Shown: positions 5,488-63,216 of the stretch, piece after piece | Layout of the letters: each line of letters opens with the position of its first letter | Numbering within the stretch: the stretch's first letter is position 1 | Assembly (NCBI GenBank): GCA_020279385.1 | Contig: GCA_020279385.1_4762.2 | Length of the DNA: 64,000 bases | Strand: one strand, 5' to 3' | Source of the DNA: a phage | Program-made: the position numbers and the translations under genes | Notes under the pieces: model-generated | Seen by the model: the letters and a program-made list of their open reading frames with translations, nothing else | Databases searched by the model: none | What the model was told of the DNA's origin: nothing

Positions 5488-6165
5488 ATGATCAGAAACC
5501 GTCTTCCTCCAGATCCAGATATGCGAATTAATGCTAAATCTGTGTATATGTTATATTGCATGATGAAAGCTCATATGAACGGGCGTTATGATTGCGTAAA
5601 ATATAATTGGAGGATGCGGTTGTCTGATGCCGCATTCAATAAACGCAGAGATAAGTATTATTTCGCAAAATTAGCGGAAAAGTACAATCTAAGAGAATTA
5701 TACTTCTTATTCCTAAGCAATCTGGTAGCCAATACCGATGCATGGGTAGGTGAAATCACCGATGTTGACGCATACGGCTTTTATATGGAATACATAGGAA
5801 AGATAACTGATGCAGCAACACGATTTGACGATGACATTAAAAGTCTGGTATACTTCTCAGAGAAACGCGGGGTTACTCTTAAAGAGCTAATTACATACAA
5901 TCCCGCAACCGAAACTAGCGGTATCTTTAAACTACTGCAAAATCGGATTATATCGTTTGAGTCGTTTATGTTGTTAGATAGCTTTCTAAATATAATCGAC
6001 GAACACGATAAGGTAGCCAAAGACTTGATTTGGCAAACTTATAGTGTTAAAATGAAGGCGTACAAGAAACTACTTGTTATTGACGCCGCAAAAGCAAGAG
6101 CATTATTTGTTAAAGTAGTTAAAGAGTGTAAAGAAATATCGAGGTTAAAAGGTGAAAACATATGA
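5488..6165 (+). CDS. 59: helicase loader gp59
   Basis: 225 aa; KSVYMLYCMMKAHMNGRYDCVKYNW...SNLVANTDAW...FKLLQNRIISFESFMLLDSFLNIID colinear with T4 gp59. Confidence 0.9.
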   Translation: MIRNRLPPDPDMRINAKSVYMLYCMMKAHMNGRYDCVKYNWRMRLSDAAFNKRRDKYYFAKLAEKYNLRELYFLFLSNLVANTDAWVGEITDVDAYGFYMEYIGKITDAATRFDDDIKSLVYFSEKRGVTLKELITYNPATETSGIFKLLQNRIISFESFMLLDSFLNIIDEHDKVAKDLIWQTYSVKMKAYKKLLVIDAAKARALFVKVVKECKEISRLKGENI

Positions 6166-6748
6166 TCCTGAATTGTATGCTCGTTGTCATGAACTCTTTA
6201 AATATGATAACGGTAAGCTGATTCGCAAGATATCGACAAACCGAAAGCATAAAGTCGGATCTAGAGCGGGTGGAGTTAATCCTAGTCATGGATACAGATT
6301 GGTGTGTATCGATGGTAAACATCATAAAGAGCATAGAATAATTTTCTTTATGCATCATGGATACATGCCAAAATACGTTGACCATGTTAACCGAATTATA
6401 ACAGATAATCGGATTGAAAACTTGAGAGATGCGAACGAGCAACAAAACTCAAGAAATATGGGTAAACAGAAAGGTCGATCGTCTGAATATATCGGTGTTA
6501 GTCTTTATAAACGAGATGGTAAATATGTTGCCAATATTCAGGTCGAAAGAAAGAAGTTGATATATTTGGGAATATATGTTCATGAGAAAGCGGCAGCACT
6601 TGCGAGAAACTTTGTTGCTGATGCTATAGACCCAAACTTTTTCAACAAAACAGAAGTAGTTGACATTTCTCCCGAAGAGATGTTAGAATTTGAAAATAGA
6701 AAGCCAAAACTGTTAGATATAATTGATAAAGTATTGACAAGCAATTAA
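6152..6748 (+). CDS. free-standing HNH homing endonuclease (HNH_3 + AP2-like DNA-binding domain)
   Basis: 198 aa; GTG start with GAGG RBS; HGYRLVCIDGKHHKEHRIIF...VDHVNRIITDNRIENLRDANEQQNSRN HNH motif; EYIGVS...KYVANI...IYLGIY...EKAAALARN AP2-like; inserted between 59 and 32. Confidence 0.8.
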   Translation: MKTYDPELYARCHELFKYDNGKLIRKISTNRKHKVGSRAGGVNPSHGYRLVCIDGKHHKEHRIIFFMHHGYMPKYVDHVNRIITDNRIENLRDANEQQNSRNMGKQKGRSSEYIGVSLYKRDGKYVANIQVERKKLIYLGIYVHEKAAALARNFVADAIDPNFFNKTEVVDISPEEMLEFENRKPKLLDIIDKVLTSN

Positions 6749-6808
6749 GTATCTGATATAGTATAAAACGTAAATTAATCAATAGTTAATGTATAAAGAG
6801 GTATAATT

Positions 6809-7783
6809 ATGAACATGTTTCGTCGTCAAGATAGCTCCAAACTGCAAGCTCAACTGGCCGCACTGAAAGGTGGCAACGGTTTCTCCAAAGAAGATCCGAA
6901 AGAGTGGAAGATTAAGACTGATGCAGCAGGTAACGGTGAAGCCCTGATTCGCTTCCTGCCGTCTAAGACAGAAGACGGTCTGCCGATTGTGAAACTGGTA
7001 AACCATTCCTTCAAAGTTAATGGTAAATGGTATTGGGAAAACTGCTCCAGCACCCACGGTGATTTTGATTCTTGCCCTGTGTGCAAATATATTAACGAAA
7101 AAGATCTGTACAATACCGATAAAACCGAATGGCAACTGATTAAGCGTAAAGCGTCTTACTACGCAAATATTCTGGTACTGAAAGATCCTCAAGCACCAGA
7201 AAATGAAGGTAAGGTATTCAAATTCCGCTTCGGTCAGAAAATTTATGATAAGATCGTTGCGATGGTGAACGTGAATACCGATATGGGCGAAGTTCCGGTA
7301 GATGTAACTTGTGTGTTCTCCGGTGCTAACTTCCTCCTGAAAGCTAAGAAGGTTGATAAACACCAGAACTATGATGATTCTCGTTTCATGCAGCAATCAC
7401 AGCTTCCGAAAATTGAAGACGAAGCATATCAGAAATATCTGATGGAAAACATGGTTGATCTGAGTGAGATTGTAGCGCCTAGCCAGTTTAAACCGTTCGA
7501 TGAACTGGAAACCAAATTTAAGAAAACTATGGGCGTTTCTATGGTAGCTGGTGCTGCGGCTTCCAGTGCCGCGGCAGCGATTAACAGCCAGCTTGACGAT
7601 TTTGACGCACAGATGAATGCATTCGATTCTGGTATGACCGCAGCTAGCACTGTAGTTGGTATTAACGCAGCTAGCACGGCGTTAGATTCTTCCGCTGATG
7701 ACCTGATGGCATCTCTGGATCTGGGTGGCGGTACTTCCTCCGCTTCTGATCTGGATGACCTGGATTCTCTGTTAGCGATGTAA
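6809..7783 (+). CDS. 32: single-stranded DNA-binding protein gp32
   Basis: 324 aa; LPSKTED...[23 protein letters not shown] (zinc site), [43 protein letters not shown], acidic C-terminus; strongly T4 gp32-like. Confidence 0.95.
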
Positions 7784-7845: not shown

Positions 7846-7873
7846 TTGACATGCTGATGTTAGGATGTATAAT
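7846..7873 (+). promoter_or_regulatory. sigma70-type early promoter (TTGACA-16-TATAAT) with conserved leader
   Basis: TTGACA 7846-7851, TATAAT 7868-7873, leader acaaacatcgaaacaaaggagga before ATG 7904. Confidence 0.7.
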
Positions 7874-7903
7874 ACAAACATCGAAACAAAGGAGGATAAA
7901 ATT

Positions 7904-9082
7904 ATGTTAGTACGTCAAGCACATGAGATTCGTATAGAAATAAAAGGAAACACGAAAACTCCCTTCTATTGGGAAAATGTTGTAAAAAATTCATGTTTGG
8001 AAGTTGGTTATTCTTTCATGGGGTTTGTTGGAGAATGGTCTGGTCTCAAAACAAAAGCTCTTATATTATGTAATAACAAGCATGAATACACATCAACTCT
8101 AGCAAATATCAGGAAAAAAGTTTCGTGTAAGAAATGTGTGGTTGATTCTCAAAGATTAAACCTAAACCATGTGATAGAAAGAATAAAACAAGAAACAAAC
8201 GATGTATTTGTTGGTTTTGTTGGTGGGGAGTATAAAAATAGCAGAACAAGACTCATTATGAACTGTGCAAACGGACACACATACCAACCAACATATACAG
8301 ATTTCATTCATCAAAAAACAAGATGTCCTTTATGTAACGGTGGCAAGATGTATGATAAAGAAGATTCCTTATCTTATATAAATGAAAATAAAGGAGATTA
8401 TAAATTTTTGGGTATAATTGGGGAATGGAAAGGAACAAAAACTAAACTTAAATTTGAGTGTCCTAATAATCACATTTACGAACAAAGTTATGATAAGTTC
8501 AAACTAGGTCGTCGGTGTCACAAATGTAGCGGAACAGCACCAATAACAAAAAGTGACCGATTAAAACAAATTGAAAAAATATGCGAAACCAACAGACTAA
8601 AATTTATTGGGATTTCAGGAAAGTGGAAAGGTGCATTAACAAGAATACTTCTGACATGCGAACGTAACCATGAATGGGTTGTAACTATTGATAATTTTGT
8701 TAATCGCGGAACACGCTGCCCGTTGTGTTCTAAGCATGGTTATCAGGCATTAAAGACAGGAACTCTTTATATACAGAAATTAACCAACAATGATTCCTTT
8801 GTTGGCGTGAAATTTGGAATAACAAACAAAGAAACACATGAGCGCATGAGAAACCAATCTCGTGTTTCAAAGTTCGATCACGAGATCTTTTATGAATTGA
8901 CTTTACAAGATGGTCAAAAGATCTTAGAATTAGAAAACAAAATCAAGGAAGCGATGAAAGGTAAAACTTCCTATATCTCGAAAGAAGATATGCCGGATGG
9001 CTGGACAGAGACAGTAGCGCCGTCTGAATTGAGCACTATCATGTATATCGTAAAATCTTTTGAAAAAGAGTTGACAGCGTAA
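7904..9082 (+). CDS. protein with four tandem Zn-ribbon repeats and C-terminal GIY-YIG-like (T5orf172-type) domain
   Basis: Four ~50-aa repeats of form F(V/L)G..GEW.G.KTK...C...H.Y.......C..C; C-terminus LYIQKL...FVGVKFGITNKETHERMRN...DGWTE; start set at ATG 7904 (track start 7865 lies inside the promoter). Confidence 0.6.
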   Translation: MLVRQAHEIRIEIKGNTKTPFYWENVVKNSCLEVGYSFMGFVGEWSGLKTKALILCNNKHEYTSTLANIRKKVSCKKCVVDSQRLNLNHVIERIKQETNDVFVGFVGGEYKNSRTRLIMNCANGHTYQPTYTDFIHQKTRCPLCNGGKMYDKEDSLSYINENKGDYKFLGIIGEWKGTKTKLKFECPNNHIYEQSYDKFKLGRRCHKCSGTAPITKSDRLKQIEKICETNRLKFIGISGKWKGALTRILLTCERNHEWVVTIDNFVNRGTRCPLCSKHGYQALKTGTLYIQKLTNNDSFVGVKFGITNKETHERMRNQSRVSKFDHEIFYELTLQDGQKILELENKIKEAMKGKTSYISKEDMPDGWTETVAPSELSTIMYIVKSFEKELTA

Positions 9083-10137: not shown

Positions 10138-10400
10138 TGAAAATCAGTATTATTCGATTATGGTCGGCAACCCATGAAAACTACGCAGTAGCAGAAGATC
10201 TTTACGGGTTGCAATATCTCTATGATGAATCGAAAGCGTCATGGTTTCCTGTACAAGAAAATAGCGATATATCAAGACCTGTTACTGTATTCGGTCCAGA
10301 CGATATTTTTATTAACATTAGCGAGACAGTAGCAAAACTGCGTAAGAAAGCAAAGAAAAAGGGGAAGTGGGATGAAAGAATATTTGAAACTGTTACGTGA
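10137..10400 (+). CDS. hypothetical protein (87 aa)
   Basis: ATG 10137 coupled to upstream ORF; overlaps td start. Confidence 0.45.
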   Translation: MKISIIRLWSATHENYAVAEDLYGLQYLYDESKASWFPVQENSDISRPVTVFGPDDIFINISETVAKLRKKAKKKGKWDERIFETVT

Positions 10401-11607
10401 TGTTATTGATAATGGCTGGCCTCGTGAAGACCGCACGGGGGTAGGTACGCTCTCTAAATTCGGCGCAGAGATGCGAATTGATTTAAGCAAGGGTTTCCCC
10501 TTACTGACCACTAAAAAGATGGCTACAGCCTCTGTAATTGGCGAATTGCTATGGTTTATGGAGGGATCACTTGACCGCCGTCGCTTACAGGAAATTACAC
10601 GCGGCAAGTTTGACGAGGAAGCCTTTGATATTTGGCGCGGCAACTGTCTTGATATGAAAGAAAAGAATCCCTTGCGATTCAATGGTTATAATGTCGGCAA
10701 TATGTATGGTATGGCGTGGCGACGCAAACCGATTCATCCACACGGTGAAATCAAAATTAAGCGAGTTAAGAGCAAATATGCACATACATTTAAGCACCCG
10801 TGGGTAGAAGACTTTACGCCAACCAATGAAACAGAAGACCGTTTATGTGCTATCTGGCGTGGTATGCGTTATGAAGAGTTTGATTCTGAATATAATCAAT
10901 TCTTAGTAGCCGATCACTGGAAGACTCAATCTAATTTTGTTAATGATGCATATTGCTTGTGGGGATTCCAGGAATGGGTAGATGATGGTTATTTCGGTTA
11001 TCTGCTTGATAGTGATTATCTGGGTGGGGATATTTTAGCACCAGATACCACGATCTTTGCTAGTATGGACGTAGACACATCAAGCACTAAAGACGATGAA
11101 GAATATGTCTATCGCCCGAAGATTTGGGAAGACCAGTTACAAAAAGTTATTGACATGATCAAGAATGATCCGTATAGTCGTCGTATTATCATTGATTCAT
11201 GGAACGTACAGGAAACGCATAATGCTGTGTTAGGTGTATGTCATCCGATGGTACAGTTTTATGTTTCCAACGACAACAAATTGAGTTGTTTATTTTTCAT
11301 GCGTTCGAATGATCTCTTTTTAGGGAATCCGTTCAACGTAGCGAGCTATGCACTGTTAACGCATATCATCGCGAAGATTTGCGGGTTAGAAGTTGGCGAA
11401 CTGGTTTATCAGTGTGGGGATTGCCACATTTACAAAAACCATTTTGATCAAGTTATGGAACAGTTAAGCCGTGTTCCGTTTGATAAACCAACAATTGAGT
11501 TGCCGGAATTTAAGTCTTTAGATGAGGTATTGACAAAGACTCCGAAAGACTTTAAAATTCACAACTATCAAAGCCATCCAGCAATCACCGCTCAAATGGC
11601 AGTATAA
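10372..11607 (+). CDS. td: thymidylate synthase with ~110 aa internal insertion
   Basis: 411 aa; TS motifs RTGVGTL, LLWFMEG, PYSRRIIIDSWNV, CHPMVQFYV, FMRSNDLFLGNPFNVASYALL, GDCHIYKNH; extra segment between GMAWRR and DQLQKVI versus ~8 aa in E. coli ThyA. Confidence 0.9.
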   Translation: MKEYLKLLRDVIDNGWPREDRTGVGTLSKFGAEMRIDLSKGFPLLTTKKMATASVIGELLWFMEGSLDRRRLQEITRGKFDEEAFDIWRGNCLDMKEKNPLRFNGYNVGNMYGMAWRRKPIHPHGEIKIKRVKSKYAHTFKHPWVEDFTPTNETEDRLCAIWRGMRYEEFDSEYNQFLVADHWKTQSNFVNDAYCLWGFQEWVDDGYFGYLLDSDYLGGDILAPDTTIFASMDVDTSSTKDDEEYVYRPKIWEDQLQKVIDMIKNDPYSRRIIIDSWNVQETHNAVLGVCHPMVQFYVSNDNKLSCLFFMRSNDLFLGNPFNVASYALLTHIIAKICGLEVGELVYQCGDCHIYKNHFDQVMEQLSRVPFDKPTIELPEFKSLDEVLTKTPKDFKIHNYQSHPAITAQMAV

Positions 11608-14511: not shown

Positions 14512-15699
14512 ATGAGCGTATTTAACCGCGAACATGTTGATATTATGAACGAACCGATGTTTCTGGGTAGTGGGTTGGGTATCGCTCGCTATGATATTCA
14601 GCGTCATCAAGTATTTGAAGAACTGATCGAAAAGCAATTGTCATTTTTCTGGCGTCCCGAAGAGATTTCACTTGCAACCGACCGCATACAATATCTTAAT
14701 ATGGGTGACGTTGAAAAGCGTTTCTTTACCGAAAACTTGAAGTATCAGACATTACTTGATTCTATTCAAGGTCGCGCACCGTCCGCAGCATTTGGTCCAA
14801 TTGTATCTGATCCAACTCTCGATACATGGTTGCAAACATGGACATTCAGCGAAACGATTCATAGCCGAAGCTATACACACATTATGCGTAACTGTTTCAT
14901 TGATCCGGCTAGTGAGTTCGACCAGATCATCGATAACCCTGCTATCATGAAGCGAGCGGAATCTATCGGGAAATATTATGATGATGTTCTTTATTGGATT
15001 CGTAAGTATGAGAATGCAAAAGAAGATCTCCGCTATTGGGAAGAAGAAGTTCTCCACCACTATTGGGAAGAACGAGACGATCAGACAGAATTAGATGATG
15101 CAAGAAGATTTTTTGAAGATACAAAACGAGATCTGATGGCTTCGATTTATCTGTGTGCACACTGCGTCAATGCACTGGAAGCAATCCGTTTTTATGTGTC
15201 CTTTGCATGTACTTTCAGCTTTGCCGAACGTGGTTTACTGGAAGGTAACGCGAAGATCATGAAATTTATTGCGCGTGATGAACAACTTCATTTAAAAGGC
15301 ACACAATACATTATTCGTCAATGGCAAACGGGGGGTGATGGTGATGAGTGGAAACAGATTGCGGAAGAACTTGAAGGCGAAGCAACGAAAATCTTTCTGG
15401 ATGTTGTCGAGCAAGAAAAAGAATGGGTAGACCACCTATTCGCAATGGGGGCAATTCCTAACCTGTCACCGGAAATTCTGAAAACCTATGTAGAATACCT
15501 GGCAGATTCCCGTATGCGTGCTGTCGGACTGAAAAGCCCGTTTAGTGTTCGTCGTCATCCGTTACCGTGGATGCGTAAGTGGTTAAACTCTGACGAAGTT
15601 CAAAACGCGGCGCAAGAAGTAGAGATTATGTATCTGGTGTCTCAGGTTAATACCGATTTAACAGACGATGACTACAACCGATTCGGTAAATATCTATGA
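14512..15699 (+). CDS. nrdB: ribonucleotide reductase small subunit
   Basis: 395 aa; di-iron/tyrosyl radical protein pattern (SETIHSRSYTHI, EAIRFYVSFACTFSF, ARDEQLH); uninterrupted ORF. Confidence 0.95.
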   Translation: MSVFNREHVDIMNEPMFLGSGLGIARYDIQRHQVFEELIEKQLSFFWRPEEISLATDRIQYLNMGDVEKRFFTENLKYQTLLDSIQGRAPSAAFGPIVSDPTLDTWLQTWTFSETIHSRSYTHIMRNCFIDPASEFDQIIDNPAIMKRAESIGKYYDDVLYWIRKYENAKEDLRYWEEEVLHHYWEERDDQTELDDARRFFEDTKRDLMASIYLCAHCVNALEAIRFYVSFACTFSFAERGLLEGNAKIMKFIARDEQLHLKGTQYIIRQWQTGGDGDEWKQIAEELEGEATKIFLDVVEQEKEWVDHLFAMGAIPNLSPEILKTYVEYLADSRMRAVGLKSPFSVRRHPLPWMRKWLNSDEVQNAAQEVEIMYLVSQVNTDLTDDDYNRFGKYL

Positions 15700-16172
15700 T
15701 ATATTTTGTCGATTTAGATTTTACGATCACAGATCCAACACATCGACTAGCAAAGATGCCAACCGAAAATCTTGATAAAGTCGAGTCATGGATCGAATAT
15801 AACAAGGCATGTGGGGGAGATTCCCCCATTTACGATGTAATTCGTGTTATTAATGCTCTTTCCGACAACGGGCATTTGATTTACATCCTCACCGGACGAA
15901 GTTCACATGCTTACATGGAAACAATTGATTGGTTAATTTCTAACGGGGTGTGTTTTGATAAAATCTTTATGAGAGGCCGTACCGATTCCCGTAAAGATTA
16001 TCACATCAAATTAGAGGTAATTAAATCCTTTGATAAAGATGAAGTTGTCGGAGTCTTTGAGGATAACCCAGAAGTGATTAAAGTTTTGCGTGAAAATGGT
16101 TATCGTGTCTTTGACGTAGGAAATCACAAAGATAAGACGCGAGCGGATATTGCAAATCACGGTCATGATTAA
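15696..16172 (+). CDS. HAD-superfamily phosphatase (nucleotidase-like)
   Basis: 158 aa; N-terminal DxDxT motif (FVDLDFTIT), later ILTGR and FEDNPE acidic motif; start overlaps nrdB stop (ATGA). Confidence 0.6.
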   Translation: MIYFVDLDFTITDPTHRLAKMPTENLDKVESWIEYNKACGGDSPIYDVIRVINALSDNGHLIYILTGRSSHAYMETIDWLISNGVCFDKIFMRGRTDSRKDYHIKLEVIKSFDKDEVVGVFEDNPEVIKVLRENGYRVFDVGNHKDKTRADIANHGHD

Positions 16173-17298: not shown

Positions 17299-17760
17299 AT
17301 GATTAATGAGCTAATAGAAAACTATGGATTCGTTAAATATTCATGTTTAGAGTGTAAAGATGGTGATGTGATTCTACCGCCTCAGAAGAACCGTTTAAAT
17401 GTTCTTTACGCTATTGTGGTTGATGATGAACTGGTATATATTGGTCAGACTGTTAATCTCAGAAAGCGGATCAATTATTACCGGACTAGCATTAACAGAC
17501 AGACACCAACGGCGGATACTCGCAAGAGTAAGAATATTCATAAGGCGCTAGAGGAAGGGAAGACAGTAACATTCTATTACCGCCAGTGCTTTGAGTTATA
17601 TATTGAGAATCCAACGGGTAAAGATATTATAAGCACTGCCGATATCGAAGAACCTGTTTTGATCACCAAATTTAAACCAGAATGGAACACAAATTATGTC
17701 AACAAAAGAAAACAACAAAAAAGTTTTAGCATTGTTCAAAAATCTGATGGCACTATGTGA
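17299..17760 (+). CDS. denA: endonuclease II (GIY-YIG nuclease)
   Basis: VLYAIVVDDELVYIGQTVNLRKRINYYRT GIY-YIG core closely resembles T4 EndoII; lies between nrdB and rnlA as in T4. Confidence 0.8.
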   Translation: MINELIENYGFVKYSCLECKDGDVILPPQKNRLNVLYAIVVDDELVYIGQTVNLRKRINYYRTSINRQTPTADTRKSKNIHKALEEGKTVTFYYRQCFELYIENPTGKDIISTADIEEPVLITKFKPEWNTNYVNKRKQQKSFSIVQKSDGTM

Positions 17761-18865
17761 CGGATCTGATACGTTCTATTACAAAGATGAAATTACGGCG
17801 ATGCAAACCCGTATGCGCATTTTTAGCTATCTGTACTTGAGCAAACCGGAAATGTGGAATAAACCAGATGCGTTAGAGTGTCGCGGGATCATGTTTGAAA
17901 TTGACGATAAAGGTCGTCCGGTCCGCATCGCATCTCGTCCTATGGAGAAGTTTTTTAATTTGGGCGAGAATGATCGCGCTCGCTTTAAGCCGGAAGATGT
18001 GGAAATGGTCATGGACAAAATGGACGGTAGTCTAGTAAGCACATACATTGATAACGGCTATGTTCAGTTGAAGTCTAAAGCGGCCTTGTACTCAAGCCAG
18101 GCAGAGAGAGCAAACGGTCTTCTGTATTCAGAGAAGTATGCGGATCTACGCGCTAAGATTGCTGATATTGGGTCTGATTATACTTTCAACTTTGAATATA
18201 CAGCACCCAGCAACCGAATTGTTGTAGAATATTCTGAACCGTCGCTAACACTTCTGAATGTACGCCATAACGTCACAGGAGAGTACGTACCGCATCAAAT
18301 GCTATTTGCTGACGCAATCCTACGTCCTCATCTGGTAAATGCGTTACAGGTTGATTCAGCGCGTTTTAGCAATATTCTTGATGAAGTTAGGATCGCAGAA
18401 GGTATCGAAGGAATTGTTGCCCGCACTAAAGACGGTCAAATGTTCAAAGTGAAGAGTGAATGGTATATTGGTGTGCACAACATTAAAAACACATCGATGT
18501 TTCCTAATAACCTGATCTACTATGTCGTAGAAAGCGAAACCGATGATTTGCGTGCTGCATATGAAGGCGAACCGGAAGCAATGGAACGAATCGAGCTATT
18601 CGAGGAAGCATTCAGGTCTATTCTTCGCAATGCCTTCACGACAGCAACAGAATTTTATAACGCACACGCGGGAGAAGACAGAAAGACATATGCATCAAAT
18701 GCGACTATCGAATCACGTAAACACGGTGATGCACAAGCATATATTTTCATGTGTCTGATGATTGCATTTGATGGTCTTGATTATGACCGTATTATGGATT
18801 CAATGAAAACTTACTATCTACGGAATTATAAGAAACTTATTCCGGCTGATAAGATTGATTGGTAA
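17696..18865 (+). CDS. rnlA: RNA ligase 1
   Basis: 389 aa; ALECRGIMFE, IASRPMEKFFNLGEN, KMDGSLVSTY (ligase lysine motif), NFEYTAPSNRIV, NIEGIVA, KRKTYA colinear with T4 Rnl1 (gp63). Confidence 0.9.
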   Translation: MSTKENNKKVLALFKNLMALCDGSDTFYYKDEITAMQTRMRIFSYLYLSKPEMWNKPDALECRGIMFEIDDKGRPVRIASRPMEKFFNLGENDRARFKPEDVEMVMDKMDGSLVSTYIDNGYVQLKSKAALYSSQAERANGLLYSEKYADLRAKIADIGSDYTFNFEYTAPSNRIVVEYSEPSLTLLNVRHNVTGEYVPHQMLFADAILRPHLVNALQVDSARFSNILDEVRIAEGIEGIVARTKDGQMFKVKSEWYIGVHNIKNTSMFPNNLIYYVVESETDDLRAAYEGEPEAMERIELFEEAFRSILRNAFTTATEFYNAHAGEDRKTYASNATIESRKHGDAQAYIFMCLMIAFDGLDYDRIMDSMKTYYLRNYKKLIPADKIDW

Positions 18866-18871
18866 TAATAA

Positions 18872-18896
18872 GCGGGGCTAGTTCCCCGCCTTTTGT
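18872..18896 (+). terminator. rho-independent terminator
   Basis: GCGGGG-CTAGTT-CCCCGC hairpin followed by CTTTTGT. Confidence 0.75.
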
Positions 18897-18909
18897 CGTT
18901 GGGGGTAAT

Positions 18910-19233
18910 ATGTCAAAGCTGATATACATTGTTATCATATCTGTATTGCTGGGGGTGGGTGGCAATATGTGGTGGGAAAATAAAAAAGAGGTAGATCGAC
19001 TGAATCAGGAATTTACAGAATATAAGAAAAAGACAGATGAAAAGATGAAGGTCGTAGACTCACTACAAAAGGAGATGTACGGAATAAGAACTAAGTTTGC
19101 AGAAGAACAAAACAAAGCAATGAAAGACGCTACACGAGGCTATGTAGTAGCACAAAAACCCAAGTTGGTAGAGAAACAGCTTAATGATTCATTTAAGGAG
19201 TTTACCGAAGAATTAAAGGAGGCGACTAAATGA
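18910..19233 (+). CDS. membrane-anchored coiled-coil protein (i-spanin-like candidate)
   Basis: N-terminal TM helix (LIYIVIISVLLGVGG) then charged helical region; ATG 18910 after terminator; occupies the T4 alc position. Confidence 0.4.
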   Translation: MSKLIYIVIISVLLGVGGNMWWENKKEVDRLNQEFTEYKKKTDEKMKVVDSLQKEMYGIRTKFAEEQNKAMKDATRGYVVAQKPKLVEKQLNDSFKEFTEELKEATK

Positions 19234-19682
19234 GCATAGAAATATTGTCTACGCAAGAGCAGATAAACAATTTTAATCTTGTTGATTATCTGGGGATAGG
19301 TGCAAGCATTATTATCCTGATGGTGTTTTCAATTTTCGTGATACACTGGATGTTTAAGAAAGCACATAAGAATTTTCAGACCGCCATAATCCATGTCTTC
19401 GCTGTGCCTATTGTATTTGCGCTTTCTTCGTGTACAATGGACCATTATTCACAGGAACCGAAATTACATCCTCCACTACCAGCACCAATAGAAAAAGTTG
19501 ACATTGACCTGAAAGTGGATACAATAGACGGTAAACCTAGAGTTTCTATGTCGTGGGAGGACTCCCAAAAATTCAGAGTCTGGCTTGCGGATATTAAGAG
19601 ATATACACTTGAAAGTAAGTTGATCATGTGTTATTATCGAAAAGAACTTAATGAGGAACGGTGCAAACCGAAGGAGAAATAA
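19230..19682 (+). CDS. membrane protein with internal lipoprotein-like signal (o-spanin-like candidate)
   Basis: Strong RBS AAGGAGG; hydrophobic segment; internal MFKK...VFAVPIVFALSSC resembles signal peptide + lipobox; proline-rich PPLPAP follows. Confidence 0.35.
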   Translation: MSIEILSTQEQINNFNLVDYLGIGASIIILMVFSIFVIHWMFKKAHKNFQTAIIHVFAVPIVFALSSCTMDHYSQEPKLHPPLPAPIEKVDIDLKVDTIDGKPRVSMSWEDSQKFRVWLADIKRYTLESKLIMCYYRKELNEERCKPKEK

Positions 19683-20560
19683 TGCCGAAATGTGAAGTGA
19701 TTTTAACCGTTGGTTGTTCTGGGTCCGGTAAAACTACATGGGCTATGGAAACATGTAAAAGGTTTAGTAATTATCGTAATGTGAATCGTGATGACCTTCG
19801 TCTTATGTTGTTTGGTGTTGACTCACTTTTGAAATACAAATATACTAAGGAAAAGGAAAAGCTGGTAGAGTCTATTCAGAGAATGATTGCTCGCGAGACT
19901 CTATCACGCGGATTGAGTATCATTATCTCTGATACCAACCTGAAAGAAAAACATCGTGTATTCTACAAAGAACTTGCAAAAGAATTTAACGCGGTGTATA
20001 CTGAACAAGTGTTCAATGAACCGTTTGAGACACTAAAGAAACGTAATTTCTATCGCGGCGAGAAAGCAATTCCACTTTCTCATTTGCGTAACCAATTTTA
20101 TCTGATGCAGGAATATATGGGTCAAGAAGTATACAAACCGAATACTATGCTGCCAAAGGCAGTGATCTTTGATATTGATGGAACATTAGCGGATAAGGGC
20201 GGTCGTCATCCGTTTGACTGGACAAAGGTCAAAGAAGATAAACCACGTCAGCAAGTGGTCGAAATGCTTAAACTGTATCGTGATAATGGTTATCGTATCA
20301 TTACATGCTCAGGGCGTGAGGATGTTTGCGAAGAAGATACTCTGCAATGGTTGCGTGAACAGGGTATTGAACCTAGTGATCACTTTCAACGTGAAACTAA
20401 TGATCGTCGTCCTGATCATGAAGTGAAGAAAGAGATCTTCTTCTCTGAAATTGCACCGCGTTATCATGTTGTTTTGGCGGTAGATGACCGTGATCAAGTG
20501 GTTGACATGTACCGCGCAATTGGTGTAGAATGTTTTCAGGTTAACTACGGAGACTTTTAA
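19682..20560 (+). CDS. pseT: polynucleotide kinase / 3'-phosphatase
   Basis: 299 aa; Walker A GCSGSGKTTWA, NRDD, phosphatase DxDGT (IFDIDGTLA), SGRE, DDRDQVV, C-terminal GVECFQV..GDF as in T4 Pnk. Confidence 0.9.
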   Translation: MPKCEVILTVGCSGSGKTTWAMETCKRFSNYRNVNRDDLRLMLFGVDSLLKYKYTKEKEKLVESIQRMIARETLSRGLSIIISDTNLKEKHRVFYKELAKEFNAVYTEQVFNEPFETLKKRNFYRGEKAIPLSHLRNQFYLMQEYMGQEVYKPNTMLPKAVIFDIDGTLADKGGRHPFDWTKVKEDKPRQQVVEMLKLYRDNGYRIITCSGREDVCEEDTLQWLREQGIEPSDHFQRETNDRRPDHEVKKEIFFSEIAPRYHVVLAVDDRDQVVDMYRAIGVECFQVNYGDF

Positions 20561-20763
20561 TGTTTACCGATAAACTCAAGCAATTAGGCGAAGCACTTGC
20601 TAAACGTGGTTTTAATGTTGAAATTGAACCCGCACCAGTTAACCCGTTTAGCGATGAGCGTCGTAGTGTATATGTCATTATGAGCAATGGTCATGGCGTG
20701 AATACATTCAATGTAAAACAGTATAGCGACGGATCAGTAGAATACTTTCGCGTATACGGTTAA
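20560..20763 (+). CDS. hypothetical protein (67 aa)
   Basis: ATG overlaps pseT stop (TAATG). Confidence 0.45.
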   Translation: MFTDKLKQLGEALAKRGFNVEIEPAPVNPFSDERRSVYVIMSNGHGVNTFNVKQYSDGSVEYFRVYG

Positions 20764-20784
20764 TTAATATGTGAGGATTATATT

Positions 20785-21291
20785 ATGTTGTCACAAACTT
20801 ACATGCAGATCGCCTATCTGATCGCAAAGAACTCTAAATGTGTTTCGTGGAAGGTAGGCGCACTGATCGAAAAAGACGGGCGAATCATTTCTACTGGATT
20901 TAACGGAACTCCAGCAGGGCAAGTAAATTGTAGCTGTCATGCACATAAAAACGGTTGGCTGGATGATGACGGCAAAATGATCCCAGAAAAACGACCAGAG
21001 CATAGTGCATGGTCACAGAAAAACGAGATCCATGCTGAATTAAATGCTATTTTGTTTGCTGCCCGTAGCGGTGTATCGATTGAAGGCGCTAGTATGTGGT
21101 GTACTGCTTCACCGTGTCCAGATTGCGCTAAAGCAATTGCAAACAGTGGTATTAAACATCTATACTATTGCGATACATACGACCGAAATGGTGGGCGTGA
21201 TTGGGCTGATATTTTGGATAAAGCCGACATTACGGTTACGCGTATTCCAAAAGCATTATTGACTGATTTGAAGGGTATTGATAATGACTGA
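20785..21291 (+). CDS. cd: dCMP deaminase
   Basis: 168 aa; zinc-binding HAELNAI and PCPDCAKAI deaminase motifs. Confidence 0.85.
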   Translation: MLSQTYMQIAYLIAKNSKCVSWKVGALIEKDGRIISTGFNGTPAGQVNCSCHAHKNGWLDDDGKMIPEKRPEHSAWSQKNEIHAELNAILFAARSGVSIEGASMWCTASPCPDCAKAIANSGIKHLYYCDTYDRNGGRDWADILDKADITVTRIPKALLTDLKGIDND

Positions 21292-29609: not shown

Positions 29610-29851
29610 AAAGAAAATTAATTAAACGCAATAAGGAATTTCTTAATAACTGCATTAAGGCCGCTAATGGTTGGCCTTTGTTCCTCTTCCTTTATGATTG
29701 GTATTCTAAACAATCGGTAGAGGAAACACGACACTATAAGAAGATCAGAAAAGAATCATATACAAAACAAGGCCGCATTAACGGACTTTACTTAATGTGG
29801 CACGGCAAAGAACCTTCTAAAATCTGTGTTGGATTAAAGGGGCGTATATGA
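29606..29851 (+). CDS. hypothetical basic protein (81 aa)
   Basis: GTG start overlapping previous stop; Lys/Arg-rich; uncertain. Confidence 0.35.
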   Translation: MKRKLIKRNKEFLNNCIKAANGWPLFLFLYDWYSKQSVEETRHYKKIRKESYTKQGRINGLYLMWHGKEPSKICVGLKGRI

Positions 29852-30564
29852 AACAAAAATTAATATTCTGCAACTTTGACGGATCGGGGATAATGGGGCT
29901 AGAATGGGCTAAAGCAGGTCATAAGGTGATCTGCTTTAATGCTGACGATGGCGACCACGGCACATACAAAAAGTATAATACCCGATTTGAACATCCAAAC
30001 ATTACCTATGTAAACACATGGATTGATTTGAACTGGCTGGAAAGAGCAATGGACCTTGAATGGGGGAAACCGGATATTATCTTTGCATTCCCACCGTGCA
30101 CCAATTTAGCTGTTAGTGGCGCTGCACACTTTGAACGAAAGAAACGAGAACAAGGACCATTGATTCAAGTTCATGATGTAAGGGCAGCTAAAATAACCGC
30201 TTATTTGGGTGAATGGCTAGGAGTTCCCTACATGATAGAGAATCCTGTAAGCGTTATCTCTAGCATGTGGCGTAAGCCTGATTATATGTTCCATCCGTGG
30301 GAATATGGTGGTTATTTGCCGGAAGATGATAAGCATCCTACGTTTCCTGAGTATATTGCCGCCCGTGATATGTACCCGAAAAAGACTTGCTTATGGACCG
30401 GACAAGGCTTTATGATGCCAGAAAAGAAACCTTTGCAGATTAATAAAGGGTACAGTAAACAGCATTCTAAGCTAGGCGGGAAAGGAACGAAAACAAAGAC
30501 TATAAGGTCACTTACCCCGCGAGGATTCGCAAAGGCAGTATTTGAAGCCAATAAGGATCTATGA
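29848..30564 (+). CDS. C5-cytosine methyltransferase-like protein (compact, no obvious target-recognition domain)
   Basis: 238 aa; motif I-like IFCNFDGSGIMG, motif IV-like FPPCTNLAVSG (Pro-Cys), motif VI-like ENPVSV, motif X-like RSLTPRGFAKAVF. Confidence 0.5.
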   Translation: MKQKLIFCNFDGSGIMGLEWAKAGHKVICFNADDGDHGTYKKYNTRFEHPNITYVNTWIDLNWLERAMDLEWGKPDIIFAFPPCTNLAVSGAAHFERKKREQGPLIQVHDVRAAKITAYLGEWLGVPYMIENPVSVISSMWRKPDYMFHPWEYGGYLPEDDKHPTFPEYIAARDMYPKKTCLWTGQGFMMPEKKPLQINKGYSKQHSKLGGKGTKTKTIRSLTPRGFAKAVFEANKDL

Positions 30565-30893
30565 TGAGATTGTTTAAGTATTCGCTAACGTCAAATTACG
30601 ATAAACAAGGTCATTGCATCCGTTGCCCTGATTGTCATAGCCATAACATCGAAAGCAAGATCACCGATCATATTGATGGACTTTGGTCGCCAGCAAGTGA
30701 AATAGAATACTATTGCTCTGATTGTGGAATTGTAGTAGCATATTGGGCATACGGATCATATGATCCATACTTCCAGATGGGAGAGCGTTCAATCCCTGCG
30801 CTCATCTGGAGAATTAAGAACAATATCCGCCATTCATGGGATGAGTTCTTAAAAGATATTGATTTACGTGATGATCCATTCAGGAGACTATAA
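30561..30893 (+). CDS. Zn-ribbon protein (110 aa)
   Basis: CIRCPDCHSH ... CSDCG; two CxxC pairs; translationally coupled to flanking genes. Confidence 0.5.
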   Translation: MMRLFKYSLTSNYDKQGHCIRCPDCHSHNIESKITDHIDGLWSPASEIEYYCSDCGIVVAYWAYGSYDPYFQMGERSIPALIWRIKNNIRHSWDEFLKDIDLRDDPFRRL

Positions 30894-30894
30894 C

Positions 30895-31413
30895 ATGAAC
30901 CGTTTAACGCCTAAACGCCGCTACTATACCAATACTAAAAACTTTGTTATCTCTGTTTACGAAGCATGGTTAGAAGATGGCTATATCAACATGAACCCAG
31001 ATTATCAGCGTCCTTTAGTATGGGACACCGAAAACAAACGTATGTTTATTGAAAACCTGATTAATGATTTTCCGGTTGGTGCTATCGCAATGGCTAAGAT
31101 TGATGATGGCTCTCGCTATGAGATCGAAATCGTGGACGGTAAACAGCGTTTAAACGCAATATTCTCCTTTATGAAGGATGAGTTTAGCATTGCCGGTAAT
31201 GATGATTCTATGTTGTATTACAGTGATTTTACGCCAGCAGAAAAGCGACGTTTCCGAAATCTCGGACTACCCGCGATCATGATGGAAGAGAGCACACGAG
31301 AAGACCGATTAGAGTATTTCTACAAAACAAACTTTTTCGGTGTGCCTCAATCGGAAGAACATCGCCAGCATGTGATTGCCCTATTGCAAGATGAGCAATT
31401 AAAAAATAACTAA
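30895..31413 (+). CDS. DUF262 / ParB-like domain protein (DGQQR-type motif)
   Basis: ~173 aa; NPDYQRPLVW and EIVDGKQRLNAIFSF resemble the DUF262 DGQQR signature; ATG 30895 with RBS CAGGAGAC. Confidence 0.55.
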   Translation: MNRLTPKRRYYTNTKNFVISVYEAWLEDGYINMNPDYQRPLVWDTENKRMFIENLINDFPVGAIAMAKIDDGSRYEIEIVDGKQRLNAIFSFMKDEFSIAGNDDSMLYYSDFTPAEKRRFRNLGLPAIMMEESTREDRLEYFYKTNFFGVPQSEEHRQHVIALLQDEQLKNN

Positions 31414-62460: not shown

Positions 62461-63216
62461 TTATTCATATCTCCATGTAGGAAACTTATCTGAGAGAAGT
62501 CTAGCTTTAACCGTTTTATAACTTATACCAAACATTTTAGCTGCATCACTCAAAATATAAAATTCCATATCGTCGATGAAGAATCTTTTTGCCCTAAAGT
62601 GTTGTTTTCCTCTCGGTGTATTTTGCGTTATTGCTGCCACATGTTCTGGGGGTAGTTTTCTCCCTGTTAATTTTGCCGCAACCTTCTCTCCTATATCTGG
62701 TCGTTTCTTTCCTCGCCACGTTTTACCTATTTTGAACTTGTGTTCTTCTGTGAACTTTCTTCCTGTGTTTGCCTTCTTTAGCGCGTCTATCTGCTTCTGT
62801 GATAGCTTATGACCTTTGAATCTTGCGCTAACCTTATCTCTAGATTCTTGCTTCCATACTCTATTTCGGTTTGCTTCTGCGTGTCTTTCGCTTGCAAGTT
62901 TTCTTCGTTCTTCGCTCATCCCAGCGTGAGTATTTCCACCTTGTCCACCAACCGAAACATTATAGGTATCTTCTCTTTTTACAAATTCCTCTGTAACTAT
63001 TTCTCTTTCTGCTTTCCTTGCCTCTTTCCATGAGTCAAACGTTTTGAGAATTGTTTTTGTGAAGTTTTCTATCCCGTTCTTTTTAATAGACCTCTTAAGA
63101 GTCAATCCACTACCCATATAAGGATCTTGACTTATGTCACCATCATACCCACGAATGCCAACATATATCTTACCATTTATATTGTTCTTTATTTCGTATA
63201 GATAATAGTTTTTCAT
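62461..63216 (-). CDS. free-standing GIY-YIG homing endonuclease (Seg-like) between genes 15 and 14
   Basis: 251 aa; N-terminal YLYEIKNNINGKIYVGIRG GIY-YIG motif; basic repeat region; ends with HTH-like module. Confidence 0.75.
   Translation of the reverse strand: MKNYYLYEIKNNINGKIYVGIRGYDGDISQDPYMGSGLTLKRSIKKNGIENFTKTILKTFDSWKEARKAEREIVTEEFVKREDTYNVSVGGQGGNTHAGMSEERRKLASERHAEANRNRVWKQESRDKVSARFKGHKLSQKQIDALKKANTGRKFTEEHKFKIGKTWRGKKRPDIGEKVAAKLTGRKLPPEHVAAITQNTPRGKQHFRAKRFFIDDMEFYILSDAAKMFGISYKTVKARLLSDKFPTWRYE

Follow-up and report, generated by a model that had tools for sequence, protein, structure and literature searches.

In phage T4, the i-spanin PseT.3 and the o-spanin PseT.2 are encoded within the order rnlA-alc-pseT.3-pseT.2-pseT.1-pseT, in a 'separated' architecture in which the two spanin genes overlap by 4 nt (ATGA). 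The pair complements lambda Rz/Rz1, both Cys87 and Cys98 of PseT.2 are essential, and the genes lie far from those for the holin (t) and endolysin (e) (Kongari et al. 2018, PMC6139136). Lambda Rz/Rz1 differ in that their genes are embedded one in the other and in that both subunits form intermolecular disulfides, whereas in the T4 type only the o-spanin carries Cys. The SpaninDataBase assigns RB49, JSE and Phi1 to the spanin families of T4 (PMC6139136), with the entry 'sep, -4' for their gene pair.

The locus described here holds essentially the same two genes as pseT.3-pseT.2 of RB49, JSE and Phi1, with no difference of substance. We consider it very likely that it represents an RB49-like spanin pair in its ancestral rnlA–pseT slot, in an unmodified-cytosine lineage from which alc and pseT.1 are missing, and that its o-spanin carries an N-terminal extension.

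Gene order and proteins of the rnlA–pseT interval

The window (the whole stretch of DNA analysed, 64,000 nucleotides) is assigned by sequence to a Krischvirus, an RB49-like T4 relative infecting Escherichia coli. It is collinear with RB49 at 82.9–148.2 kb. The region considered here is 98% identical at the DNA level to RB49, 98% identical to the Krischvirus SAP and 99.5% identical to phage Skers, and identities of 95–99.5% were obtained with 59 Krischvirus records. The features of the interval are as follows:

17696..18865, plus strand: rnlA, RNA ligase 1, gp63 homologue (PHROG 562, 4.8e-124; Pfam RNA_lig_T4_1 and T4_Rnl1_C)
18872..18889, plus strand: terminator-like GC hairpin, followed by CTTTTGT, in the rnlA/pseT.3 spacer (consensus scan and sequence)
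18910..19233, plus strand: ORF1, assigned i-spanin of 107 aa, pseT.3 orthologue (PHROG 739, T4 homology)
19216..19222, plus strand: Shine-Dalgarno sequence AAGGAGG, 7 nt upstream of the ORF2 ATG (sequence)
19230..19682, plus strand: ORF2, assigned o-spanin precursor of 150 aa, pseT.2 orthologue (PHROG 812, T4 homology)
19230..19349, plus strand: clade-specific N-terminal extension of the o-spanin (hydropathy, charge, AF2, pN/pS, absence in other representatives)
19350..19430, plus strand: lipoprotein-signal-like segment of the o-spanin (hydropathy/charge, AF2 helix 47–67)
19431..19679, plus strand: predicted mature o-spanin, 83 aa (lipobox Cys68 = TGT, 19431–19433)
19682..20560, plus strand: pseT, polynucleotide kinase/phosphatase (PHROG 505, 5.4e-115; Pfam AAA_33 and HAD_PNKP; RB49 annotation)

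The order rnlA, ORF1, ORF2, pseT, all on the plus strand, agrees with that in RB49, and the rnlA product is 43% identical to T4 RnlA. Only 44 bp separate rnlA from ORF1. The ORF1 stop and the ORF2 ATG share the sequence ATGA (19230–19233), the same 4-nt overlap as in T4, and the pseT ATG (19682) overlaps the o-spanin stop (TAATG). The interval 18910–20560, which the initial annotation had given to two membrane proteins, does contain their genes, ending at 19682, but it also holds pseT.

ORF1 matches PHROG 739 ('Rz-like spanin', E 7.8e-27) over residues 2–107 and is 35% identical to T4 PseT.3 (BLASTP, E 1e-13). It has a single N-terminal hydrophobic segment (residues 4–20, mean Kyte-Doolittle hydropathy 2.18 for the 17-mer) preceded by one basic residue, and the remainder of the protein is charged and helical. 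In the AF2 model (mean pLDDT 80), helices 4–81 and 85–105 form a predicted two-helix periplasmic domain with a short linker; for the RB49 i-spanin, the SpaninDataBase gives 83.5% helix and places a coiled coil at 25–56. By eye, ORF1 equals the curated JSE i-spanin at every residue, and the cognate o-spanin gene lies directly 3' of it. Like T4 PseT.3, it has an N-terminal TMD and two periplasmic helices and lacks Cys, and it is 10 aa shorter. The RB49 RefSeq version of pseT.3 begins at an internal Met, giving 88 aa without the TMD, an annotation error that the SpaninDataBase curators have already corrected.

ORF2 matches PHROG 812 ('Rz-like spanin', E 1.5e-32) over residues 53–150 only, and is 48% identical to T4 PseT.2 (BLASTP, E 4e-23). 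It has two hydrophobic segments (residues 22–38 and 52–68). The initial annotation had noticed an internal lipoprotein-like signal and a proline-rich stretch, and both are readily located: a basic loop, MFKKAHKNFQ (+3), and a hydrophobic stretch (about 52–67; AF2 helix 47–67) lead to the lipobox L-S-S-C, in which Cys68 is invariant in all 12 aligned sequences, and 5 Pro occur in the 25 residues that follow. The +2 residue after Cys68 is Thr (Ser in relatives L009 and L014) rather than Asp, and sorting of the product to the outer membrane is therefore predicted. The AF2 model of ORF2, which is of moderate confidence (mean pLDDT 67, from a 10-sequence alignment), gives the mature part, beyond its Pro-rich linker, a β-hairpin (94–107) and a helix (109–144). 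Cys134 and Cys145 align with the two Cys of T4 PseT.2; Cys134 is invariant and Cys145 is present in at least 90% of sequences. The predicted mature domain resembles that of T4 in its 83-aa length, its Pro-rich linker, its β-hairpin and helix, and its two C-terminal Cys. Compared by eye with the JSE protein, ORF2 shows three residue differences, all of them within the N-terminal extension.

The PHROG and BLASTP matches of both ORFs are far beyond chance, and the AF2 secondary structures agree with the published T4 descriptions. On these comparisons, ORF1 and ORF2 are identified as an i-spanin/o-spanin pair orthologous to T4 PseT.3/PseT.2, and the resemblance to such a pair proposed from the letters alone is borne out. 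The genes are not new: both are already annotated and catalogued as spanins, the pair being labelled 'Rz-like spanin' (pseT.3/pseT.2) in the RB49 RefSeq record and i-spanin/o-spanin in Skers. That ORF1 and ORF2 might instead be lineage-specific membrane proteins replacing alc, for example in host takeover or superinfection exclusion, is hardly credible. Both are small membrane proteins, their genes lie among early genes at a distance from those for holin and endolysin, and for both of them NCBIfam gave no match and a Pfam-A version without PF26831 gave sub-threshold noise only. However, the T4 spanin genes are likewise distant from t and e, the synteny with T4 is identical, PF26831 (Phage_T4_Spanin) is assigned to ORF2 homologues, and the T4 proteins to which the two ORFs are significantly homologous are experimentally validated spanins.

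By homology to T4 and lambda, the pair would function as a two-component spanin. It resembles lambda Rz/Rz1 in functional class and, by analogy, in topology, with one type II protein of the inner membrane and one lipoprotein of the outer membrane; there is no sequence similarity, and the genes here are separated rather than embedded. ORF1 and ORF2 would be translationally coupled through the ATGA overlap. The N-terminal TMD of the i-spanin would fix this protein in the inner membrane, with its two-helix domain reaching into the periplasm, and the o-spanin, after lipidation at Cys68 and cleavage by signal peptidase II, would be sent to the outer membrane. Binding between the C-termini of the two proteins would span the periplasm, and, upon removal of the peptidoglycan by holin and endolysin, the spanin complex would fuse the inner and outer membranes, releasing the virions.

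Absence of alc and of T4-type hydroxymethylcytosine genes in RB49-like phages

T4 Alc shares nothing with ORF1 or ORF2; it is the neighbour expected directly upstream of the i-spanin in T4-type hydroxymethylcytosine (hmC) phages, and it occupies that place in 1137 phage records. The T4 locus has alc upstream and pseT.1 downstream of the spanin pair, and the rnlA–pseT interval of the window lacks both. The initial annotation had placed the two membrane proteins at the 'T4 alc position'. Both are indeed present between rnlA and pseT, but the slot is their own ancestral one and not that of alc, the T4 interval comprising alc, pseT.3, pseT.2 and pseT.1.

That no alc homologue is present in the window was confirmed, both by the short gap between rnlA and ORF1 and by tblastn, in which T4 Alc matched nothing in the window with an E cut-off of 10. 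In the RB49 genome its best E was 0.36; the same query matches 1137 other phage records, down to 26% identity. T4 alpha-gt and beta-gt gave only E > 0.5 in the window and in the whole RB49 genome, and T4 gp42 gave weak paralogous matches to thymidylate synthase only (E 2.7e-4 in the window, 0.008 in RB49). These tblastn negatives were run beside strong positive controls. In the RB49 annotation, 42 and beta-gt are missing between uvsX and 43, and alpha-gt is missing between 47 and 55; DenB, like Alc, is absent. A 411-aa 'td' was considered as a disguised dCMP hydroxymethylase and rejected, as the thymidylate synthase of the window matches Thymidylat_synt over its full length (9.8e-84) and retains, in its PFN motif, the Asn typical of ThyA. 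Because Alc selectively blocks the transcription of DNA that contains cytosine, it is useful only to phages with hmC genomes.

The distribution of alc is the same as that of gene 42, with RB49 excluded (Petrov 2010), and RB49 DNA, which is cut by HpaII and NheI, has been described as unmodified. The missing alc fits this known lack of T4 hmC genes in RB49-like phages, and the suggestion that the phage belongs to a lineage without the T4 hmC system is well supported. Both alc and pseT.1 are simply missing from this lineage; Krischvirus genomes are without gene 42 and both glucosyltransferases, and RB49 DNA contains ordinary cytosine. The C5-MTase-like gene that had been offered as further support does not provide it. 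The ORF at 29848–30564 matches the Pfam C5 methylase family PF00145 with E 0.023 and 14.6 bits, below the 22-bit cut-off. It matches PHROG 757 ('DNA methyltransferase', 2e-90), and searches with it found no relative in a PDB sequence search and no match in NCBIfam.

A 2026 study of the Krischvirus SAP reported 5-hmdC (about one-third) and alpha-gentiobiosyl-mdC (two-thirds), and genes for a pathway could not be identified (PMC13390438). SAP and the window share 98% identity in this region, and one reading is that the present phage too modifies its cytosines with hmC-derived sugars, through a pathway unrelated to gp42, alpha-gt and beta-gt, in which case the absence of alc would be uninformative on modification. 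We regard this as very unlikely. TB34, 99.96% identical to SAP, is unmodified, and the SAP profile equals that of seven Tequatrovirus phages of the same collection (PMC13390438). In our view, a stock in which phages were mixed would give this profile as well. Restriction digestion indicates unmodified RB49 DNA, a scan of five larger RB49 proteins with hypothetical or vague annotations revealed neither glycosyltransferase nor TET-like domains, and Alc and DenB, both of which are absent, should be of advantage to a phage whose C is fully modified. An unmodified-cytosine lineage thus remains the preferred reading. Nevertheless, 'unmodified' may not hold for every Krischvirus isolate, and gene absence may not equal an unmodified genome, as SAP reportedly has hmC-derived bases without pathway genes.

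The N-terminal extension of the o-spanin

At 150 aa, the precursor of the o-spanin is longer than the 99-aa protein of T4, and it carries an extra acidic tail and TM helix before the lipoprotein signal. As a result, 67 residues with two hydrophobic helices precede Cys68, in excess of the conventional signal length of about 15–30 aa. The SpaninDataBase curators flagged a 'too long signal sequence' and doubted the start, yet filed the protein in the T4 family (PMC6139136). The long signal is an anomaly of the ORF2 precursor and not of the mature protein. A two-helix pre-sequence of this length is atypical for SPII substrates; processing at the internal lipobox is nevertheless predicted.

The extension itself (40 residues) consists of an acidic tail (residues 1–20, net −3) and the extra TM helix (about 21–40; AF2 helix 17–44). 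The charge pattern, an acidic tail and a basic loop, is kept across relatives, and the motifs FNL and LGxG are conserved within the extension. It is absent from all other T4-type o-spanin representatives, and searches of Pfam and PHROG with the 67-aa pre-sequence by itself gave no meaningful relative. In an exhaustive phmmer search of 1.84 billion proteins, relatives of the pre-sequence were limited to the clade representative P0004 and a 108-aa protein, P0009, which is 92% identical over residues 1–79; the other matches cover the mature domain only.

A different account of the long signal is that the true start is Met41 (ATG 19350), with a 27-residue lipoprotein signal, the upstream 40 codons being an artefact or lying outside the functional protein. 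Such a start would give a textbook n-region, h-region and lipobox, and it would agree with the absence of the extension from the other family representatives, with a PHROG 812 profile that starts only at residue 53 and with the doubts of the curators. The codons themselves argue otherwise. Codon 41 has no Shine-Dalgarno sequence before it in any lineage examined, and it is not Met everywhere: JSE has Leu there, and L009 and L014 have ATT or ATA. By contrast, the upstream ATG has an AAGGAG-type Shine-Dalgarno sequence with the stop/start overlap in six of seven divergent lineages (L013 has AGAGAGG). The extension is in frame and without stops in seven lineages, down to 62% identity, and among lineages its codons show saturated pS (0.6–0.8) against pN of 0.05–0.46; for the pair L015–L016, pS is 0.75 and pN 0.05. 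A start at Met41 is thus quite unlikely, and these comparisons indicate that the extension is translated, under purifying selection and confined to the Krischvirus clade.

Two further ideas about the extension were considered. Fusion of a former separate gene finds no support, as L011, a relative with the short form, shows no additional ORF between its i-spanin and o-spanin. TM1 is unlikely to be a SAR-type releasable helix, being strongly hydrophobic (mean Kyte-Doolittle hydropathy 2.7).

For the translated precursor, the most likely topology would be a periplasmic N-tail, TM1, a cytoplasmic basic loop and TM2 as the lipoprotein signal. Cleavage would then release a mature o-spanin of the usual 83 aa, and a peptide of 67 residues with two TM segments would stay behind in the inner membrane. 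It is conceivable, though we hold it only tentatively, that the pre-sequence acts as a module with a function of its own and is not simply a signal peptide of excess length, either gating or delaying LspA processing or persisting after cleavage as a small hairpin. We know of no described o-spanin with such a built-in regulatory membrane domain.

Taken as a whole, the observation on this locus is confirmed and its interpretation supported, but both are already known and ordinary. The main finding carries little weight, as the genes are catalogued spanins and publications going back to at least 2010 describe RB49-like phages as lacking alc, gene 42 and the glucosyltransferases. Of some value are two minor points, the SAP hmC report and the o-spanin extension, the extra TM helix of which had been flagged but left without an explanation. 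If the pre-sequence is indeed a module, delayed or gated LspA processing might do the same to the arming of the spanin or, alternatively, an N-out/C-out inner-membrane hairpin might contact the i-spanin TMD or the holin/antiholin machinery, tuning the timing of lysis.

The rnlA–pseT locus

By nucleotide similarity, the window is assigned to an RB49-like phage of the genus Krischvirus. Positions 17600–20800 match 59 phage records at 95–99.5% identity (megablast), all of them RB49-like Escherichia/Shigella phages of this genus, the closest being vB_EcoM_Skers (99.5%; RB49 98.3%). The window is collinear with RB49 (around 82.9–148.2 kb, reverse complement) end to end at 92–98% identity, broken only at three short stretches that are inserted or replaced (local blastn). 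A homing-endonuclease-like ORF with HNH_3 and AP2 domains (6152–6748, 198 aa) lies between gene 59 and gene 32; RB49 lacks it, and 6158–6809 finds no blastn match there. Also lacking from RB49 is a GIY-YIG, I-TevI-type (Seg-like) homing endonuclease ORF (62461–63216, minus strand, 251 aa) between gp14 and gp15. A 405-aa protein (7865–9082) carries four CapR-homology/treble-clef zinc-finger repeats; the 5′ part of its gene (7903–8767) does not match the RB49 counterpart, labelled ‘endonuclease’, at the DNA level.

The initial annotation placed two membrane proteins, resembling an i-spanin/o-spanin pair, at the T4 alc position (18910–20560). Both genes lie within this range, between rnlA and pseT, but the range also includes pseT itself.

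Genes from nrdB to cd, in window positions
14512–15699, +, nrdB
15696–16172, +, HAD phosphatase, 158 aa (HAD_PNKP, 2.9e-13), overlapping the nrdB stop
between HAD phosphatase and denA, +, four small ORFs
17299–17760, +, denA
17696–18865, +, rnlA
18910–19233, +, ORF1, i-spanin (PHROG 739)
19230–19682, +, ORF2, o-spanin (PHROG 812)
19682 (ATG) to 20560, +, pseT
between pseT and cd, +, cd.2 homologue
20785–21291, +, cd

The 44-bp spacer from rnlA to ORF1 contains a terminator-like hairpin (18872–18889) and a GGGGG Shine–Dalgarno (SD) sequence. The HAD phosphatase stands alone and duplicates the phosphatase half of PseT; its RB49 label is ‘polynucleotide kinase’.

Because the T4 transcription order (RefSeq record: rnlA, alc, pseT.3, pseT.2, pseT.1, pseT) already has pseT.3 and pseT.2 between rnlA and pseT, ORF1 and ORF2 are, as judged from homology and gene order, T4's own spanin genes in a conserved position and not newcomers in an alc slot. 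In T4 the pair is flanked by alc and pseT.1, both of which are missing from the lineage of the window.

The two proteins had been described accurately. ORF1 has a single N-terminal hydrophobic segment (residues 4–20) and is otherwise highly charged; AF2 predicts helices at 4–81 and 85–105, separated by a three-residue break (mean pLDDT 80). ORF2 has two hydrophobic segments (22–38 and 52–68) and an internal LSSC lipobox with Cys68, followed by five prolines in 25 residues. Their identity as spanins is borne out by matches to the ‘Rz-like spanin’ families PHROG 739 (ORF1, E 7.8e-27) and PHROG 812 (ORF2, E 1.5e-32), by BLASTP similarity to T4 PseT.3 (35% identity, 1e-13) and PseT.2 (48%, 4e-23), and by Pfam PF26831 ‘Phage_T4_Spanin’ on homologues. 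At 83 aa, the predicted mature o-spanin has exactly the T4 length, and ORF2 conserves Cys134 and Cys145, equivalents of PseT.2 Cys87 and Cys98, both of which are essential (Kongari et al. 2018, PMC6139136). Its predicted fold, a disordered proline-rich linker, β-hairpin 94–107 and long helix 109–144 (AF2, local pLDDT 74–87), agrees with the β-α description of T4 PseT.2 published in that study, in which PseT.3/PseT.2 complemented λ Rz/Rz1 mutants and the T4 i-spanin and o-spanin families took in RB49, JSE and Phi1.

Compared by eye with that study's curated SpaninDataBase (SpaninDB), ORF1 is identical to the JSE i-spanin at every residue, and ORF2 differs from the JSE o-spanin at three, all N-terminal. 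The genes are labelled pseT.3 and pseT.2 ‘Rz-like spanin’ in RB49 RefSeq, and i-spanin and o-spanin in Skers. RB49 RefSeq pseT.3 (L001 7363–7629) is annotated from an internal Met, so that 88 aa remain and the transmembrane domain is lost. The correct start is that of the 107-aa form (window 18910), as in Skers and SpaninDB.

The extended o-spanin pre-sequence

T4 PseT.2 is 99 aa long with its lipobox cysteine at position 17, whereas ORF2 has 150 aa and Cys68. Its 67-residue pre-sequence (window 19230–19430) thus places two TM helices ahead of the lipobox cysteine. SpaninDB curators flagged a ‘too long signal sequence’ without explanation, and also recorded a ‘perfect SD’ and a start at the pseT.3 end (PMC6139136). 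Six more lineages were added from RefSeq and metagenome sequences, with protein identity down to 62%. The extension (residues ~1–40, an acidic tail and the extra TM helix) is in frame in all six; in each, an SD lies 7–8 nt before the ATG, which overlaps the i-spanin stop. The SD is AAGGAG-type except in one relative (L013, AGAGAGG). Across lineages, pS in the extension is 0.6–0.8 (saturated) and pN much lower, 0.05–0.46. No SD precedes the alternative start, Met41; two lineages have ATT or ATA at this codon, and JSE has Leu at this residue.

Run exhaustively over 1.84 billion representatives, phmmer found 72 relatives, among which the full extension occurs only in the clade's own representative (P0004, 151 aa). 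One 108-aa match (P0009) shares 92% identity over residues 1–79 and diverges beyond; other o-spanin-sized matches (70–132 aa) have the lipobox region much closer to the N-terminus, and three of 814–1832 aa match over short internal stretches only. A more distant relative (L011 2192–2808, metagenome contig k119_4708) has a 98-aa short-form o-spanin without extension; it has no pseT at all, and cd comes after a 72-aa ORF. Substitution and distribution patterns show that purifying selection acts on the extension and that it is confined to the Krischvirus clade.

AF2 models the pre-sequence as two helices (17–44 and 47–67), and its charge pattern is kept (N-tail −1 to −3, inter-helix loop +2 to +3). 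By the positive-inside rule, this conserved pattern implies an N-out topology, with TM1, a cytoplasmic loop and TM2, the lipobox facing the periplasm. The most economical reading is a polytopic precursor whose predicted cutting by LspA at Cys68 would yield a normal o-spanin and leave a 67-residue membrane hairpin. The pre-sequence is a minor curiosity.

alc and the hydroxymethylcytosine system

The window and the complete RB49 genome were searched by tblastn with T4 proteins. Alc, α-gt, β-gt and PseT.1 gave no match in either (all E > 0.3), and gp42 gave only weak paralogous matches within thymidylate synthase; strong matches came from the controls (PseT, RnlA, DenA, Cd, gp56, Dam). The Alc result, which upholds the reported absence of alc, is not a sensitivity problem, because the same query detects 1137 other phage records at identities down to 26%, usually with an i-spanin directly adjacent. 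The RB49 syntenic slots uvsX–43 (42, β-gt) and 47–55 (α-gt) are empty. The window td (10372–11607, 411 aa) has an insertion of ~130–145 residues mid-protein, is otherwise canonical and keeps the catalytic Cys; because its match to the 266-position Pfam profile is full-length and the PFN motif keeps the ThyA-type Asn, td is classed as a genuine ThyA.

The literature agrees: alc and denB share the distribution of gene 42, RB49 excluded (Petrov 2010); RB49 lacks hydroxymethylase and β-gt and has DNA that is sensitive to cutting with HpaII and NheI; and Krischvirus lacks hmC-transferase and endonuclease IV genes. The T4 hmC system is absent from this phage group. The initial observation was real, and its reading as a spanin pair in a phage without that system is right, both points being already annotated and published for the RB49-like group.

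A caveat comes from a 2026 study (PMC13390438), in which Krischvirus SAP was found to contain 5-hmdC and α-gentiobiosyl-mdC; TB34, 99.96% identical to SAP, was unmodified. SAP yielded no homologues of gene 42 or of the glucosyltransferases and no pathway genes, and the study's authors call the modification unexplained. SAP and TB34 are 98% identical to window 17600–20800. SAP shares its modification profile with seven Tequatrovirus phages from the collection to which it belongs (PMC13390438), and we infer that a mixed phage stock would also yield this result.

A C5-MTase-like gene had been offered as further support for the lack of hmC. This ORF (29848–30564, 238 aa) matches PHROG 757 DNA methyltransferase (2e-90) and has motifs resembling C5-MTase I, IV and VI; it adds little to the argument, because its Pfam C-5 methylase match is below threshold. 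It belongs to a small cluster upstream of alt (29848–31413), together with a Cys-rich, zinc-ribbon-like 110-aa ORF and a 184-aa protein whose GmrSD_N/DUF262 domain is matched at E 5e-20. Given SAP's unexplained cytosine modifications (PMC13390438), this cluster may be of interest.
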